Shown here: piece after piece, positions 14,436 through 40,702 of the stretch
Position numbering within the stretch: position 1 is the stretch's first letter
How the letters are laid out: the number at the start of each line of letters is the position of its first letter
Made by a program: the position numbers and the translations under genes
Notes under the pieces: generated by a model
What the model was told of the DNA's origin: nothing
Databases searched by the model: none
Seen by the model: the letters and a program-made list of their open reading frames with translations, nothing else
NCBI GenBank assembly: GCA_020025135.1
Contig: JAHHSQ010000001.1
Span: 179-64,178, forward strand
DNA: 64,000 nucleotides
Direction of reading: 5' to 3'
Origin: Pectinatus sp.
GTDB taxonomy: Bacteria; Bacillota; Negativicutes; Selenomonadales; Selenomonadaceae

Positions 14436-15990
14436 TGGCGACGAAGAGGGAAGATAATAAAAAGAAATTTTGGAAAAATGACCGCGAGACTTTGCTGGTG
14501 CTAATGTATGTTTTTATTGATAAAAGCAATTAAATTATTGCCGAAAATAGTAAGTATATAGAGCAATTTATATATCAAAGGGTAAAATCCACCTGAATTG
14601 CTGGAAACTCTTAAAGCTAATCGGACTGAAGCACGGTTTTGAAAGAGAAATTGTTTGACAGTAACGAAAGTAGAAAAAATCGATTAGATGGTAGATGGTT
14701 AAATCCTAAGTACTATAAATAGACAATCAGCAGCCAAACTTCTAAGAGAAGGAGGTTCAACGACTATCTAGAGTAGGTCCGAGTGGGCCGAAGTGGGTGG
14801 CTCTTCTGATACAGAAGATGAAGATATAGTCTGTGCTCATGGGAAATCATGAGAAGTTTATTAGAACTACACTAAATTAACGCCTTGGTGTGAACATATT
14901 TTGCAGTGCTATTGGCTCTTTGAACATATTTAGCTCCAGCTTTGTCACCGCTGATTTAGATTTTCATAATCCGTATTACTTTCTCATTCGGCATTTTATC
15001 GTCGTATTGATTGGTACGATTGGTTTTTTTGTCGGCAAGAGGGTTAATTATCAGATTTGGCGCGATAAGATTGTATATATATATTTCTTGACATTGTTGC
15101 TCCTTTTGTTGGTAGTAGTACACGGCGTTACTATCAATGGAGCGAAGCGCTGGATAAATTTGATTTGGTTTCAGTTACAACCATCAGAGTTGGTAAAGAT
15201 AGTGGGAGTTATTCTTACGAGTAGTTATATCAGTGCTTGCGCTAAGATGCACCGGGACATTTCACTTTTTAATAAAAACATTGTTGCGGTCGGTGTTTTA
15301 GCATTGCTGGTTTTAGAACAACCGGATTTGGGTACTAGTATGATTATTATTGGTGTTCCAATTATCATGTATATTGTGGCTGGTATCGACCAAAAGACGA
15401 TAACGATTTTATTAATTGGAACGCTATTAGCACTGGTTTTGCTTGTTTGGGCGAAACCATATCGCTGGGACAGAATTATGATTTGGTATGACCCGTGGGC
15501 TAGGGCGCAGGGAGATGGTTATCAAACGGTACAGTCCATAATTGCCATCGGTTCAGGCGGTTTTTGGGGCATGGGTATCGGTAAAGGGGTGGCTAAATAT
15601 GCCTATTTACCAGAGGCTCATACCGATTTTGCTTTTGCAATTTTCTCACAGGAAATGGGTATGATTGGCGTCGTTTGTATTTTTATCTTGTACATGATAT
15701 TTTACTTTTATGCTTGGCGCGTGGCGATAAAAGCTAGGGATGTTTATGGTCGGTTACTCGGTTTTGGCATAGTTGCTTTGTTAGTTAGCCAAACCTTAAT
15801 CAATTTGGCAATGGTCATAGGATTGTTGCCGGTAGTCGGAGTGCCATTACCATTTATCAGTTATGGGGGGACAGCATTGCTTGTAAATATGTTTATGCTA
15901 GGCATTTTACAGAATATTAGCTTGGTCACAGATAAATATCCTTTGAAATTAGTGCCTAAAGAGGGAAAAACATTCGGCCGTAGTGGATGA
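14432..15990 (+). CDS. FtsW/RodA/SpoVE-family (SEDS) protein, split by one group I intron
   Basis: join(14432..14517,14907..15990). Exon 1 encodes M(M)ATKREDNKKKFWKNDRETLLVLMYVF plus 2 nt. The spliced junction ...LLVLMYVF(I)AIGSLNIFSSSFV reconstitutes TM1 with the same spacing I recall for B. subtilis SpoVE (LLLVIITLLLLTIGLIMVYSASAV). Exon 2 carries the rest of the SEDS fold (QPSELVK, PDLGT, LPEAHTDFAF, PFISYGG). Confidence 0.8.
14518..14906 (+). ncRNA. Group I intron (subgroup IA-like, ORF-less), copy A in the ftsW-like gene
   Basis: 5' exon ends gtttttat|. Guide sequence GTAAG is at 14550-14554, followed by an 8-bp P2 hairpin with a GCAA loop. Core motifs: attgctgg (14597), aatcagcagcc, ggttcaacgactat (14754-14767), gatatagtctg (14823-14833). 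P3 is ccacct/gggtgg. P9 has a GAAA loop. The intron ends ...ttttgcag|. An alternative in-frame 3' splice site lies at 14903. Confidence 0.85.
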
Positions 15991-29378: not shown

Positions 29379-32035
29379 TGGGTAATATACAAGTGGTTGG
29401 TCTTGGGCCAGCTGGAGAAAAGTTTATTAATCTGCATACTTGGCATATTTTAAACGATGCTGAACAAATATGCTTGCGGACCAAAATGCATCCAGCTGTA
29501 GAAGCCTTGGAAAAGAAAAATATAAATTTTATCAATTATCGGTAAGTTCAACGGGAAACCGCTGAATAGAGGTTATTATACCCAACTAAGAAATTGAATT
29601 GCTGAAAAGTCGTAAAGCCGATTAAACTAAAACATAATTTTGAAAAAGAAATAGGTGTGAAGGTGCTGAAAGGAGAAAAAATTAATCGGATAATATCTGG
29701 TGTGAATCGGGATATAAAAAATCGAAAATCAGCAGCCAAGCTCCAAAGAGGAGCAGGTTCAACGACTATTCCTCGTGAGGGAAGTAGGTATAAGCGTATC
29801 GAAGTGATTTCGCCCTAACAGGAGATGCTGAGGGAGAAGAGATAGTCTGTGCTTGTCGGAAACGACAAGGTGTCTATTATTGAGACCGCATAGATTTAGC
29901 GAAGCTATGTGAACACCACAGAAGTTATGATGATTTTTATCAAAATGGTTTATCTTTTGACGATGTCTACGAAAGAATTGTCACTGATTTATTAGTTAGG
30001 GCTAGCGTTAAAGATGTCGTATATGTAGTTCCAGGCAGTCCTATGGTTGCCGAAAGAACAGTGCCTATGTTATTAAAGCGGGCTGCTAGCGAGAATATTA
30101 AAGTAGAAGTAGTTCCAGCGATGAGTTTTTTGGAATTACTCTATGTAACTCTTCAAGTAGACCCAATTCAAGGTCTTTTAATTACAGATGCCTTTGCCTT
30201 ACAGGAAAAAGTATTGGATTTTTCTTTTGGCACAGTGATAACGCAATTATACGACAAGCATATGGCTTCAGAAGTTAAATTGACTCTGATGGATTATTTG
30301 CCAGATGATTATGAAGTGAGTGTTGTCTATCATCTAGGTATGTCAGATGAAAAGGTGACAAGCTTGCCACTTTATGAATTGGATAGAATTGAGAAGATAG
30401 ACTATTTGACGAGTTTATATGTCAAACCATATCAACAGGAAACGCAAACTTTTTCCATTAATCCATTGGTAGAAATTGTCAAAACTTTGCGTTCTCCAGG
30501 TGGATGTCCTTGGGATATACTGCAAACACATCGCTCTTTGAGAAATAATCTCATCGAAGAAACTTATTGATATTTGGTAAGCGTATCGAGAAATCGGTAT
30601 GAAAAATAAGAAATCGAAATGCTGGAACACCGCAAAGCTGATTAAACCACAACATAATCTCGAAAGATTTAGGTGTGAAGGTAGCGAAAGCAGAAAAAAT
30701 TAATCAGATGGTAGATGGCGTAAGCCTAAAATACCGTAAACCGGCAATCAGCAGCCAAGCTCTAAAAGGAGAAGGTTCAACGACTATTCCCCTAAAAGGA
30801 AGTAGGTGCGAGGGTACCGAAGTGGTTTCATCCCACAGGTAGAGCTGAGGGAAAAGAGATAGTCTGTGCTTTTGGGAAACTAAGAGAGGTTCTCTTTGAG
30901 AACTGTTTCAATTTAGCGAATTGAAATGAACAGCTTTATTAAAGTCAGGAAGTATTAGAAGCGATAGATAAAGAAGATGCGAATTTACTGTGTGAAGAAC
31001 TAGGCGATTTATTATTACAGATAGTTTTTCATGCTCGCATGGCAGAAGAAAGTAAATTGTTTTCTATGCAAGAAGTAATAGAGGGCATTACAAATAAATT
31101 GGTTTATAGGCATCCACATGTCTTTGGTGATGTTTCCGTGCGCGATGCGGGAGAAGTGCTTTTGAATTGGGAAAAATTAAAGCGAGCGGAGAAGAAGGAT
31201 AGAAAATACCTTTTAGATGGAATACCAAAAGATTTACCCGCTCTTTTAACGGCGGATAAACTGCAGTCTAAAGCAGCAAAGGTCGGCTTTGATTTTGCCA
31301 ATGTAGAAGCTGCTAAAGATAAAATATTAGAAGAATTACAAGAAACCCTAGAAGCTATTAAATTAGGAGAAGAGGAAAAAATAGAGGAAGAAATGGGCGA
31401 TTTGCTCTTTTCTGTCGTCAATTTCGCTCGTTTAAAGCACATAAATCCAGAAATTGCCTTATTAAAAAGCGATGCTGTTCGTTACTTGGACAGCTAGTGC
31501 GATTTATAGTAAGCATATCGGGAAACTGGTATGTGGCGTTTAGGAGCCGGCACAAAGAAATTGAATTGCTGGAAAGATGTAAAGCTAATTAAACCACAAC
31601 GCAATATTGAAGAAGTGTAGGCGTGACGGTGGCGAAAGCAGAAAAAATTAATTAGATGGTATATGGTTAAAACCTAAGTGCTAGAAAATTGTCAATCAGC
31701 AGCCAAGCTCTGAAGAGGAGCAGGTTCAACGACTATTTCCCGATGGGAAAGTAGGTACAAGCGTACTGAAGTTGTTTCGCCCTAACGGATAATGCCGAGG
31801 GAAAAGAGATAGTCTATGCTCACATGAAAGTGCGAGAAGTTTGTAAAAACTGTATTAAACTAGCGATTTAATACGAATAAAAACCGATATGGTAACAGTA
31901 GAAGCAAATAAAAAATTTCGCAAACGCTTTACCTTTATTGAAAGAGAATTAAAAAAATCTCAAATTGAGTGGTCCAAAGCGAATGCAGAAATGTTAGAGG
32001 ATTTATGGCAAAAGGCTAAACGAATGGAAGGATAA
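29378..32035 (+). CDS. yabN: YabN-type fusion protein (tetrapyrrole-methylase-like domain plus MazG NTP pyrophosphohydrolase domain), split by three group I introns
   Basis: join(29378..29532,29922..30567,30949..31462,31899..32035). Junctions: EKKNINF(I)SYDDFYQ; SLRNNLIEETY|EVLEAIDKEDANLLCEELGD (compare B. subtilis YabN ..MIEECYELLEAIDEED..); NPEIAL(L)EANKKFRKRFTFIE (compare ..EPEEALTMTNDKFRRRFSYIE..). These align without gaps to YabN as I recall it. The ATG overlaps the mfd stop (gTGATG). Confidence 0.85.
29533..29921 (+). ncRNA. Group I intron, copy C1 (yabN intron 1)
   Basis: 5' exon ends aattttat|. GTAAG at 29542-29546, and its TAA is the in-frame stop. P2 is ttcaacgg-GAAA-ccgctgaa. P3 is gaaat/atttc. 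P5a is ccgatta/taatcgg. P9 is cttgtcg-GAAA-cgacaag. The intron ends ...caccacag|. Confidence 0.85.
30568..30948 (+). ncRNA. Group I intron, copy C2 (yabN intron 2)
   Basis: 5' exon ends aaacttat|, then an immediate TGA. GTAAG at 30577-30581 pairs with cttat (U.G at the splice site). P2 is cgtatcga-GAAA-tcggtatg. P5a is ctgatta/taatcag. An in-frame TAA 9 nt upstream of exon 3 forces the 3' splice site to ...aaagtcag| (30948). Confidence 0.9.
31463..31898 (+). ncRNA. Group I intron, copy C3 (yabN intron 3)
   Basis: 5' exon ends attgccttat|. The P1 loop is 46 nt. GTAAG at 31509-31513. P2 is catatcgg-GAAA-ctggtatg. P5a is ctaatta/taattag. P7.2 is ggtac-aagc-gtact. The intron ends ...ggtaacag|. 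Confidence 0.85.
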
Positions 32036-32739: not shown

Positions 32740-34351
32740 TTGTTAAACGTAGTTATAACAGGTGGAACCAGTGGCATAGGTTTGGCTACTGCAAAATTGT
32801 ATTTAGAAAAGGGAGCAAATGTCTATGCTGTGGCGCGTGATGTCGGGAAATATCAAGATATTCAGGCAGAATTACACGCAGAAAATTATCATTTTGTGCA
32901 GGCTGATATAAGAAATGTAGTTGATTGTCAGCGCGCTTGTATGGAAATTGCTAACAAAGGCAAAGTGATAGATATATTGGTCAATTCAGCAGGCGTTTAT
33001 GGCGAACGGGCCATTGGTGATACTGACGAAGAATTTTTTCAAACTATTTTGGATACTAATATAAAAGGCATGTATTTTATTAAATCGCCTGTGGCGAAAT
33101 GGTAAGCCTGTCGAGAAATTGGCAGAGCATGAAAAAGGAAATTGAATTGCTGGAATACCGTAAAGCCATTTGTACCACAACACAATCTCGGAAGAGATAG
33201 ATGTGAAGGTGACGAAAGTAGAAAAAAACAAATTGGATGATGCAAGGTTAAATCCTAAACATTTTGAAATCGGCAATCAGCAGCCAAGCTCTAAAAGGAG
33301 CAGGTTCAACGACTATTTCCTCAAAGGGAAGTAGACGCAAGCGCGTCGAAGCGGTTTCGCCCTAACAGATAATGCTGAGGGAAATGAGATAGTCTGTACT
33401 CATGAGAAAGCATGAGAAGTTCATCGGAGAACTGCATGGAAGTAGCGATTTCATGTGAAAAATAATAATTAGGTGTAAGTATGCATTGCCTTTACTAAAA
33501 AAGGGGCGCAATAAGGCGATTGTCAATATTTCTTCCGATGCCGGAATAAATGGCAATTATTTTTGTACGGCATATTGCGCTAGCAAGGGAGCGGTAACGG
33601 TTTTTACGAAGGCGCTTTCTTTAGAGTTGGCCCTAGATAAGATAAGAGTGAATTGTCTTTGCCCTGGTGATATCCGTACGCCCATGACAGAAGAGCAGTG
33701 GACAGACGATAACAGCGAGGCTGAGATGAGCTCTTTTTATCCCTTGGGGCGCATTGGAACAGCGGAGGAAGTGGCTAATGCCATTTATTTTTTAGCTTCA
33801 GAAAAAGCCAGCTTTATTAAAAATTATTGCCACGTCGTTTCTTAAAATCTAGAGAGAGAAGCGGTTAATTCAAAGAGGCAATTAATCTGTTTAGTAAGCA
33901 TATTGGGTAACTAGTGTGCATAGTATGTAATTTTACATATAATAAAGAAATTGAATTGCTGGAAAGGCGTAAAGCTGATTAAACTACAACGTGATGGTGA
34001 AATAAACATGGACGTGAAGGTAGCGAAAGCAAAAAAAATTAATCAGATGACATACGGTTAAATCCTAAGTGTCAGTTTATCGCTAATCAGCAGCGAAGCC
34101 CTGAAAAAGGGAACGTTCAACGACTATTCCTCCTGAGGGAAGTAGGCTAGAAGCGATAGCTAGCCGAAGTGATTTCGCCCAAACGGACAATGCCGTGGGA
34201 AAAGAGATAGTCTGTGCTCGTGAAAAATCACGAGGTGTTCGAAATAGAACAGCGGAATAGTAGCGCATTTCCGTGAACAAATTCTCCAGATGGGAGAGTC
34301 AGAACTGGCAGTGTAATCAGTATAGATGGTGGATTGACAGCTCATTCTTAA
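32740..34351 (+). CDS. Short-chain dehydrogenase/reductase (SDR), split by two group I introns
   Basis: join(32740..33080,33473..33817,34303..34351). Has TGGTSGIG, NSAG, and Y..ASK (YCASKGA). Junctions: TNIKGMYF(M)CKYALPLLKKGRNKAIVNISS and LASEKASF(I)TGSVISIDGGLTAHS. Both reproduce standard SDR spacing. Confidence 0.8.
33081..33472 (+). ncRNA. Group I intron, copy D1 (SDR intron 1)
   Basis: 5' exon ends gtattttat|. GTAAG at 33102-33106, and its TAA is in frame. P2 is ctgtcga-GAAA-ttggcag. P3 is ggaaat/gtttc. P7.2 is gacgc-aagc-gcgtc. The 3' end is ...ataattag| (33472). This is TAG rather than CAG, chosen from SDR spacing. Confidence 0.8.
33818..34302 (+). ncRNA. Group I intron, copy D2 (SDR intron 2)
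   Basis: 5' exon ends cagctttat|. The P1 loop is 76 nt and contains its own hairpin (aattattgcc...ggcaattaat). GTAAG at 33894-33898. P2 is gcatattgg-GTAA-ctagtgtgc. P7.2 is enlarged (ggctag...ctagcc). The intron ends ...gagagtcag|. An earlier CAG at 34287-34289 would be out of frame. Confidence 0.85.
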
Positions 34352-39672: not shown

Positions 39673-40702
39673 ATGAGAAGCTTACCGCGTCCTCAATTAT
39701 TAGTAGATGGATATAATGTTATTAATTGTTGGCCGGGTCTTTTAGATAGAGATTTAGAATATTCCAGAGATAAACTCATTCACATCCTGCGGGAATATGG
39801 AGCATATGAAAATTATGATATTACGATTGTTTTTGATTGAAATTATCGTATGAGAATATACATGCGGTAATAATTCCAGTCAGTATGTTTAGAGATAAGC
39901 ATATAAAGATTGCTGATAAAGGCATCAACACTGTTTTAACTGCTGGAAACCCCTAAAGGTATTTGAACCACAACATAAACATGCAAAAAGGTTAAATGTG
40001 AAGGTGACGAAAGTAGAAAAAATCAGATACATGGCATATGGTTAAATCCTAAGTGCTTGAAATGGGTAATCAGCAACTAAGCTCTGAATAGGAGAAAGCT
40101 CAACGACTATTCCTCTTGAGGGAAGTACCTGACAAGCGATAGGTTAGGGATATGGACAGGCCTGAACAGATTAGGTTGCAGGATAAGATATAGTCTGTGC
40201 TCAATGGAAACACTGAGATGTTCCAGAGGGAACTGCATGGGTATAGCGAGCTGATGTGAACAGAATTATCGTTGTACAGAGTAGAAATGGAAATATAAAT
40301 ATCTGATACGCACTCTGTTGGTTATTTTAACGAGAAATACAGGCTTTATACACGAAATCTTGTCGTAGTACGGAATATCATGATAAACATTTTGCGATAA
40401 TTTATACCAAAGAAAAAGAAACGGCAGACAGTTATATTGAACGTTTGGCATACTATTTTTCTCATGAAGGAAAAGAAGTTTTTGTCGTCACTTCGGACGG
40501 AGCAGAACAAAATACTATTTTGGGAGCTGGCGCTTATCGCATCACAGTGAGGGAATTACAAATGGCAGTAAAAAATGCCAAAAAAAAGATGCGCAAGCAA
40601 TACATTCACAAGGTATCTGTTCCGAAGGGAAGAAATGAATTGGCGGATTATTTACAGGCTGATGTTTTGGAAAAATTGGAGGAGTTGCGTAAGAAAAAGT
40701 GA
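39673..40702 (+). CDS. yacP: NYN-domain ribonuclease YacP/Rae1, split by one group I intron
   Basis: join(39673..39837,40343..40702). The spliced sequence ...LLVDGYNVINCWP...YENYDITIVFD|ALYTKSCRSTEYHDKHFAIIYTKEKETADSYIERL...VVTSDGAEQ aligns along its length with B. subtilis YacP as I recall it (..VIVVFDAHLVKG...VIFTKENETADERIEKL..VATSDYTEQ). It follows rlmB, as in Bacillus. Confidence 0.8.
39838..40342 (+). ncRNA. Group I intron, copy E (yacP), divergent member with a retargeted guide sequence
   Basis: 5' exon ends gtttttgat|, then an immediate TGA. The guide sequence is GTCAG (39879-39883), complementary to exon ttgat with U.G at the splice site. P2 is tatgttta-GAGA-taagcata. P3 is ctgtt/aacag. 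P5a is gtatttga/tcagatac. Core motifs: actgctgg, aatcagcaac, gctcaacgactat, gatatagtctg. An ~80-nt tail follows P9.2. An in-frame TAA at 40328-40330 forces the 3' splice site to ...aaatacag| (40342). Confidence 0.8.

Follow-up and report, generated by a model that had tools for sequence, protein, structure and literature searches.

We describe eleven group I introns in a 64-kb window (the whole stretch of DNA analyzed here, 64,000 nt of contig JAHHSQ010000001.1 from a Pectinatus sp. assembly) and trace their probable origin to IStrons, mobile elements in which a transposon is fused to a self-splicing intron. The introns, labeled A, B1 to B4, C1 to C3, D1, D2 and E, belong to subclass IA2 and contain no credible open reading frame (ORF). 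They are best explained as derivatives of group A IStrons that arrived through the transposase TnpA, eroded, and are now probably immobile, a reading to which we assign a probability of roughly 0.68. Pairing of the P1 helix with a T-rich pentanucleotide target has already been described for group A IStrons and is in itself ordinary; what is unusual is the density of IStron-derived introns in an unsampled Negativicutes bacterium and the degree to which they have been stripped, apparently down to the ribozyme, across 26 kb of housekeeping genes. If the whole genome resembles the window, it would provide a natural case in which a DNA transposon has supplied bacterial genes with stable introns, and a good place to ask whether group I introns spread by reverse splicing.

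Group I introns in bacterial protein-coding genes have been described as very rare (PMC4853749). Group A IStrons, which combine an IS200/IS605 transposon with a fused IA2 intron (Tourasse et al. 2014, PMC4227781), target the pentanucleotides TTGAT, ATTAT or TTTAT, insert directly 3′ of them and end in TCAG, with the insertion sequence (IS) module placed after a motif, GAAC(A/G)A or GAAUA, that lies downstream of P9.2; published counts range from one to six elements per strain, with a maximum of 24 in Clostridioides difficile (PMC4227781). In the IS200/IS605 family, the HUH transposase TnpA inserts single-stranded DNA after a pentanucleotide read by a DNA guide in the left end, a reaction that requires hairpins at both ends and generates no target duplication, while TnpB is an RNA-guided nuclease that reinforces retention of the element (PMC10055086).

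Pairing of the internal guide at the insertion sites

Scanning the window with the Rfam group I intron model (RF00028) returned 11 matches, all on the + strand and located between 14.5 and 40.3 kb, with scores of 57-75 bits against a gathering score of 50 and with model positions 1-253 covered in every match. A profile built from the intron cores and run with nhmmer on both strands of the window recovered exactly the same 11 copies, and no intron fragments or minus-strand copies. The introns span 373-505 nt, their last base is invariably G, their 3′ flanks are mutually unrelated and no target duplication is present. The additional elements expected of IA2 are found, with two hairpins between P7 and P3′ (P7.1 and P7.2) and three after P7′ (P9, P9.1 and P9.2), and on the basis of sequence and predicted structure the eleven copies are group I introns of this subclass. 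Because compensatory changes are seen among the copies in 57 of 92 predicted pairs, and because the reading frames of all five host genes become open again once the introns are taken out, the comparative evidence indicates that the ribozyme is under selection. Given the intact exons and conserved structure, the eleven introns are very probably still able to splice.

Copy C2 illustrates how the 5′ splice site is arranged. Its upstream exon ends in CTTAT (30563-30567, + strand), which constitutes the 5′ strand of P1, with the splice site after position 30567, where the joined product ETY|EVLEAI aligns without gaps to the MazG structure 3cra. Sequence and folding then delimit a 9-nt P1 loop, L1 (TGATATTTG, 30568-30576), followed by the internal guide GTAAG (30577-30581), supported by covariation as the 3′ strand of P1, and by the P2 hairpin CGTATCGA-GAAA-TCGGTATG (30582-30601), an 8-bp helix with a GAAA loop supported by both folding and covariation. 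The minimum-energy fold of positions 30556-30604 consists of P1 plus P2 (z = -3.2), and none of 200 shuffled sequences folds as well. The original prediction, made from the sequence alone, had placed the exon, loop, guide and P2 of this copy at the same positions, which are exact.

The exon preceding the intron ends in TTTAT at seven of the 11 sites, in CTTAT at three and in TTGAT at one (copy E), in agreement with the ten exon ends originally reported. In the ten copies from A to D2, the guide (GTAAG, or GTAAA in B3) lies 9-76 nt into the intron, directly before an 8-bp hairpin with a GNRA loop. A P1 of five base pairs, including the terminal U·G at the 5′ splice site, can be formed in 11 of 11 copies, so that the textbook P1 proposed for ten of them extends to copy E, which the original prediction had not listed. 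There, guide GTCAG stands opposite exon TTGAT, and it is this compensatory double change that establishes the helix as real. Across 28 family members (the 11 window copies and 17 relatives), a standard pair is present at every P1 position of every sequence, although the splice sites of the relatives were chosen by requiring pairing and the independent test of P1 is hence limited to the 11 window copies. At exon position -3, 17 of these 28 sequences have U-A, 10 have G-C and one has G-U, and compensatory changes occur in seven of the eight P2 pairs.

Splice sites in the window were set without use of the P1 pairing. For B1 to B4, the junctions were obtained by tblastn of two uninterrupted homologues (P0002 and P0003), defining five exons; those of C2 and C3 are crossed gaplessly in the alignment to the E. 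coli MazG structure 3cra, those of D1 and D2 in the alignment to the short-chain dehydrogenase structure 4ni5, and that of E in the alignment to the B. subtilis YacP structure 5mq9. The junctions of A and C1 follow from reading-frame continuity only, and their 3′ sites are uncertain by 3 nt. The junctions fixed by protein alignment agree with those predicted from pairing, as had been claimed for C2, C3 and D2. A pentamer ending in U and pairing fully with GTAAG precedes only 0.87% of + strand positions in the window, against 10 of 10 copies with a guide of this type; the probability of obtaining this by chance is about 5e-13, even allowing for 3 nt of slack on each side. Taken together, the sequence data show that the 5′ splice site is set by P1 in all eleven copies, and the U·G pair at that site implies that the intron can be removed from the mRNA, leaving the host protein intact.

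P1 pairing is needed by any group I intron that splices, whatever delivered the intron. Because a gene tolerates an intron only at places where guide and exon can pair, the pairing does not discriminate between routes of arrival, and the same pattern is already predicted by the documented behavior of group A IStrons. The original prediction had read the same pairing as evidence of guide-directed spread, which does not follow, since any delivery route would be tolerated only at pairing sites; its observations that the introns lack ORFs and that endonuclease homing does not account for their sites stand, and the step from pairing to RNA-guided spread is the part of its interpretation that is not supported.

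IStron relatives and probable remnants of transposon ends

Relatives of the introns were sought by scanning genomes with the intron 3′ domain. Among the matches listed are sequences from C. difficile (CdISt1), Fusobacterium, Leptotrichia, Selenomonadaceae, Anaerovibrio, Phascolarctobacterium, Pectinatus and Epulonipiscium, each stretch holding a single match, and most of these relatives carry, 70-200 nt after GAAC, an ORF of 370-430 amino acids (aa) in which Pfam detects OrfB_IS605 and a Cas12f1-like TNB domain, identifying it as TnpB. The left ends of the relatives have a fixed order: the target pentanucleotide comes first, then a palindrome of the xxGTGAC-TTTA-GTCxx type with outer stem on either side of it, then the guide and finally P2. 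TTGAT targets go with guide GTCAG and TTTAT targets with GTAAG; the right ends comprise GAACCC, a palindrome and GGAGGTTCAG, and full-length relatives have the xxGTGACTTTAGTCxx palindrome in both ends.

Among the loci fetched, the window cores match best, with 72-83% identity, sequences that are for the most part intron modules of IStrons or relatives of these without ORFs; the closest relatives found (76-83%) are mainly modules of IStrons with tnpB. Copy E is 79% identical to the C. difficile module (338 nt) and 83% identical to the Phascolarctobacterium module. A rough neighbor-joining tree places E among TTGAT-type IStrons, groups A, B3 and B4 in a clade next to a Pectinatus intron and gathers the other seven copies in a second clade, the ten copies other than E thereby forming two clades specific to the window. 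Because E, with its TTGAT/GTCAG pair, is separate from these two clades, at least three intron lineages have colonized the region. The covariation of guide and target across the family supports an IStron origin, and the window copies appear to keep the IStron layout at both ends, with YTTAT (ten copies) or TTGAT (one copy) upstream, a GAAC-type motif after P9.2, then a small stem, and a terminal CAG in 8 of 11.

The closest system for comparison is that of the TTTAT-type group A IStrons (Fusobacterium FnISt, Megamonas MfISt1 and loci L245, L242, L256, L317 and L284). With these elements the window copies share insertion directly after TTTAT, a GTAAG guide followed by an 8-bp P2 with a GNRA loop, an IA2 core that is 72-81% identical, GAAC after P9.2 at the position of the IS module, a 3′ end in CAG, an unduplicated target and location in unrelated protein-coding genes in any codon phase. 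Unlike them, the window copies have no tnpB or tnpA, their IS module is shrunk to 7-24 nt, the xxGTGACTTTAGTCxx palindrome of the left end and the right-end palindrome with GGAGGTTCAG are missing, and their density far exceeds the published one to six copies per strain, or up to 24 in C. difficile. Copy E resembles instead the TTGAT-type CdISt1 of C. difficile, sharing its TTGAT target, its GTCAG guide and a tail stem at the position of the CdISt1 ORFs, but it carries neither ORFs nor TnpA-type palindromes and ends in ATACAG instead of GGAGGTTCAG.

These relationships bear on the proposal that the copies are group I introns of the ordinary homing kind, with a protein homing endonuclease that they formerly encoded or relied on and have since lost. 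Many phage IA2 introns do share the catalytic core and the P9.2/GAAC motif with them. Homing endonucleases, however, recognize long and fixed sites of 14-40 bp (PMC4227781), whereas the eleven unrelated sites, distributed over five unrelated genes, have only a pentanucleotide in common; the original prediction, too, had dismissed classical homing. Neither an endonuclease ORF nor a remnant of one is present in the introns, where the only ORFs are a few antisense frames of 61-66 aa at unrelated positions, and among the loci fetched the closest relatives are IStron modules and not phage homing introns. Homing is accordingly a highly improbable account of these introns and close to refuted.

The segments in which an IStron would carry its transposon module differ from copy to copy. 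After P9.2, nine copies have the motif GAAC, with GAAT and GAAA in one copy each, and a tail of 7-81 nt follows. The tail of D2, GAAC-AAATT-CTCC-AGAT-GGGAG-AGTCAG, resembles the right-end terminus GGGAGGTTCAG of intact IStrons; that of C2 reads CTTTA-T-TAAAG-TCAG; and that of E extends for 81 nt after GAAC, with a 7-bp stem (ACAGAGT..ACTCTGT) and a final ATACAG, as a remnant of the IS module. Every copy has its own P1 loop (9-76 nt) and its own tail, with cores that are 60-87% identical. A hairpin is present in the P1 loop of A, B4, C3, D2 and E, and three copies have a P1 loop of just 9 nt. Copies B3 and B4, which are neighbors and the most similar pair (87%), illustrate the variation, B3 resembling B4 minus its P1-loop hairpin.

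Elements from other genomes can be arranged in an erosion series that leads from full-length elements with the right-end palindrome and GGAGGTTCAG, through a full-length, tnpB-bearing element of a Selenomonadaceae metagenome-assembled genome that has lost the left-end palindrome (L310) and ORF-less mini-elements with an intact right end (L261, L339 and L323), to copies reduced to a small stem plus (T/A)CAG (L344, L268, L318 and L055) and to short-tailed copies (L289, L297 and L287). Every stage of this decay is represented among other genomes and one viral contig. Judged by their sequence, the window tails fit the last two stages. Loops and tails that are specific to each copy, in combination with similar cores, fit separate erosion after insertion and not the spread of an already minimal intron.

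Gene-less derivatives of IStrons have been encountered before, as in BcISt1 of emetic B. cereus, in an intron of Fusobacterium sp. F0437 (L287) and in three free-standing introns of C. difficile 630. Like the window copies, these are IStron-related IA2 introns that lack IS genes, follow the family target and have short tails (e.g. GAACAAAAACAG in L287). Unlike the window, with its 11 diverged copies of three lineages in 26 kb, they occur singly or in small numbers in a genome, in most cases at orthologous sites.

Palindrome-associated transposable elements (PATEs), the non-autonomous members of IS200/IS605, are likewise gene-less derivatives of the same transposon family, and they suggest that the introns might still be mobile, moved in trans by a TnpA encoded elsewhere that would use the remaining hairpins (for example in the P1 loop, P2 or P9.2) and insert the introns after YTTAT. 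Movement in trans of ORF-less IS200/IS605 elements is well documented (PMC10055086), the ORF-less mini-IStrons of other genomes have intact ends, five window copies retain the P1-loop hairpin, and the position of P2 directly 3′ of the guide mirrors the IS200/IS605 arrangement of DNA guide beside left-end hairpin. PATEs, however, retain a hairpin at either end and are movable in trans, whereas the window copies lack these hairpins and have retained the ribozyme: three have only the 9-nt loop, tails of 7-24 nt hold a tiny stem at most, left and right hairpins within a copy are dissimilar, contrary to what is seen in functional IS200/IS605 ends, and core differences of 13-40% argue against a recent burst. 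Continuing mobility of this kind seems improbable to us.

Proposed delivery by transposase or by reverse splicing

For the favored IStron origin, the mechanism suggested by the family is as follows. Ancestral elements with IS200/IS605 ends would have been inserted as single-stranded DNA by the Y1/HUH transposase TnpA, which would have set each element directly 3′ of the pentanucleotide recognized by its left-end DNA guide. The RNA guide would have co-evolved with the target in each IStron lineage (TTTAT with GTAAG, TTGAT with GTCAG). With an RNA guide that matches the transposase target, every insertion would be born able to splice, and every site would consequently pair with the guide. The transposon module, comprising tnpA, tnpB and the left- and right-end hairpins, would then have eroded separately in each copy while selection on the host genes kept the ribozyme, leaving the present copies as probably immobile residents that do not spread via the RNA guide. 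The description of the introns as endonuclease-independent in the original prediction is, for their arrival, probably wrong, given that in the IStron family TnpA (HUH) chooses the target in DNA and the TnpB nuclease reinforces retention (PMC10055086).

The original prediction had proposed that the ORF-less introns reverse-splice into transcripts bearing YUUAU opposite GUAAG and return to the genome through reverse transcription and recombination, so that introns devoid of hairpins and genes would still be multiplying by means of a 5-nt RNA guide. Reverse splicing is considered a possible route of group I intron mobility in the literature (10.1101/2023.11.20.567912), and several observations are in line with it: guide pairing is seen at every site; ORFs and matched TnpA-type hairpins are absent from the copies; all lie on the sense strand of transcribed genes, three of which hold four, three and two copies, as if introns were re-inserting into their own transcript; the neighbors B3 and B4 are the most similar pair; and the two window-specific clades imply multiplication within the lineage. 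RNA-guided multiplication would in fact explain both these clades and the presence of several copies per gene. Pairing and sense orientation, however, are needed for any surviving insertion and do not discriminate; a reverse transcriptase was not seen among the window annotations; a copied minimal intron should share P1 loops and tails, which all differ; and the retained IStron end features have no role in this route. Sense YTTAT sites in minus-strand genes (23 ORFs, 25 kb) are unoccupied in all 121 instances, despite being suitable, against 10 of 139 occupied in plus-strand genes. Complementarity of the P10 type, between the 3′ exon and the bases 5′ of the guide, is no better than chance, with a mean helix of 3.0 nt for a copy's own exon versus 2.6 nt for the exons of other copies (permutation p = 0.21). 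We consider multiplication by this route unlikely. If true, it would give guide-directed transposition of group I introns its first natural example in bacteria, in an intron-rich bacterium suited to the study of eukaryote-like intron gain.

The distribution of the introns by strand offers a further comparison with IS200/IS605 elements, which are described as targeting the lagging-strand template (PMC6006769). GC skew on the + strand is positive throughout the window, and the location of all copies on this strand, read as lagging-strand template, is, like the vacancy of the minus-strand sense sites, consistent with such targeting, though weakly so.

Several points weigh against a transposase-mediated origin from IStrons. 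The strand argument is weak, being confounded by the clustering of the introns in five genes and by the sense orientation that splicing demands, and at the level of genes the strand bias reaches a p-value of only about 0.05. The P9.2 loop and the GAAC motif are also found in ordinary phage IA2 introns and are by themselves no proof of IStron ancestry, and three copies do not end in CAG (GAG in B3, TAG in D1 and TTG in B4, as opposed to TCAG in two copies and another base plus CAG in six). Neither tnpA nor tnpB, nor any remnant of them, was found in the 64-kb window by annotation or by tblastn with four IStron TnpB proteins and all ORFs of the fetched loci, which yielded nothing significant, and no window copy has a recognizable matched pair of TnpA-type hairpins in its P1 loop and tail. 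The transposase step itself is extrapolated from relatives, and the two clades specific to the window show that introns multiplied within the lineage by an undocumented route.

Host genes, coordinates and occurrence in other sequences

The window is part of a bacterial chromosome of 38% G+C with rpoD, dnaG, mfd, recA, guaB, thyX, nusA, infB and a cluster of genes for lipopolysaccharide. For one window gene, the closest homologues with a name belong to Pectinatus and other Selenomonadaceae, at approximately 50% identity, which places the host in the Negativicutes, and no relative with at least 90% identity to RecA, RpoD or an acyltransferase exon was found among 15 billion proteins. Literature searches likewise returned no report of an intron-rich Negativicutes bacterium. 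Within their 26 kb, the introns occur at about one per 2.4 kb; they are clustered by region too, with no introns in the plus-strand genes at 41-48 kb. The only other assembly with these exact proteins is the fragmented Logan run SRR14298095 (L001 and L345), in which some contigs end inside introns B4, C1 and D2. Such breaks suggest that this genome contains many repeats of the intron core.

Sequence patterns were also used to look for the family in viral and metagenomic data. A DNA pattern of 14 specified bases and a catalytic-core pattern each match many viral contigs; the core is common to phage IA2 introns, and these scans consequently say little about an IStron-derived family. A stricter pattern yielded nine single matches in a metagenome scan (L346-L354) and no second dense intron array. 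The nine resemble ordinary phage-type IA2 introns, with a P9.2 loop TAGCG and a GAAC motif yet no IStron ends, implying that these motifs alone do not identify an IStron. On four viral contigs from IMG/VR (L024, L034, L095 and L109) there are IStron-like elements in which the GAAC motif is soon followed by an ORF of 270-380 aa; two of these (L024 and L109) have a TTGAT target and a left-end palindrome. Elements of this kind on viral contigs constitute a possible route of transfer between hosts.

All intron coordinates that follow refer to the + strand of the window. Intron A (14518-14906, 389 nt) interrupts an ftsW/rodA-type gene after TTTAT, with guide GTAAG at 14550 and 3′ end TTGCAG; its 3′ site derives from the reading frame only, with 14903 as the alternative. 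A yabN/mazG-type gene holds C1 (29533-29921, 389 nt; exon end TTTAT, guide at 29542, 3′ end CCACAG, with the 3′ site set by reading frame only), C2 (30568-30948, 381 nt; exon end CTTAT, 3′ end AGTCAG) and C3 (31463-31898, 436 nt; exon end CTTAT, guide at 31509, 3′ end TAACAG). Two introns lie in a short-chain dehydrogenase gene, both after TTTAT: D1 (33081-33472, 392 nt), with its guide at 33102 and 3′ end AATTAG, and D2 (33818-34302, 485 nt), with its guide at 33894, 76 nt into the intron. Intron E (39838-40342, 505 nt) is located in yacP after TTGAT, with guide GTCAG at 39879 and 3′ end ATACAG. An interruption was also suspected in ruvC (1886-2541, - strand) and rejected, the gene being intact.

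The remaining four introns share a single acyltransferase gene (Acyl_transf_3, PF01757; 21662-24388), with a coding sequence of 1.1 kb. The first, B1 (21869-22294, 426 nt), follows TTTAT, has its guide at 21897 and ends in AAACAG. It is separated by an exon of 41 nt (22295-22335) from B2 (22336-22746, 411 nt; exon end TTTAT, guide at 22362, 3′ end CCACAG), whose 3′ site at 22746 is fixed by the reading frame AT|G AAA AAG. An exon of 55 nt (22747-22801) precedes B3 (22802-23174, 373 nt; exon end TTTAT, guide GTAAA at 22811, 3′ end TTGAG), and one of 115 nt (23175-23289) precedes B4 (23290-23669, 380 nt; exon end CTTAT, guide at 23319, 3′ end AATTG). Once spliced, the acyltransferase aligns over its full length with homologues of 376-379 aa that lack interruptions.

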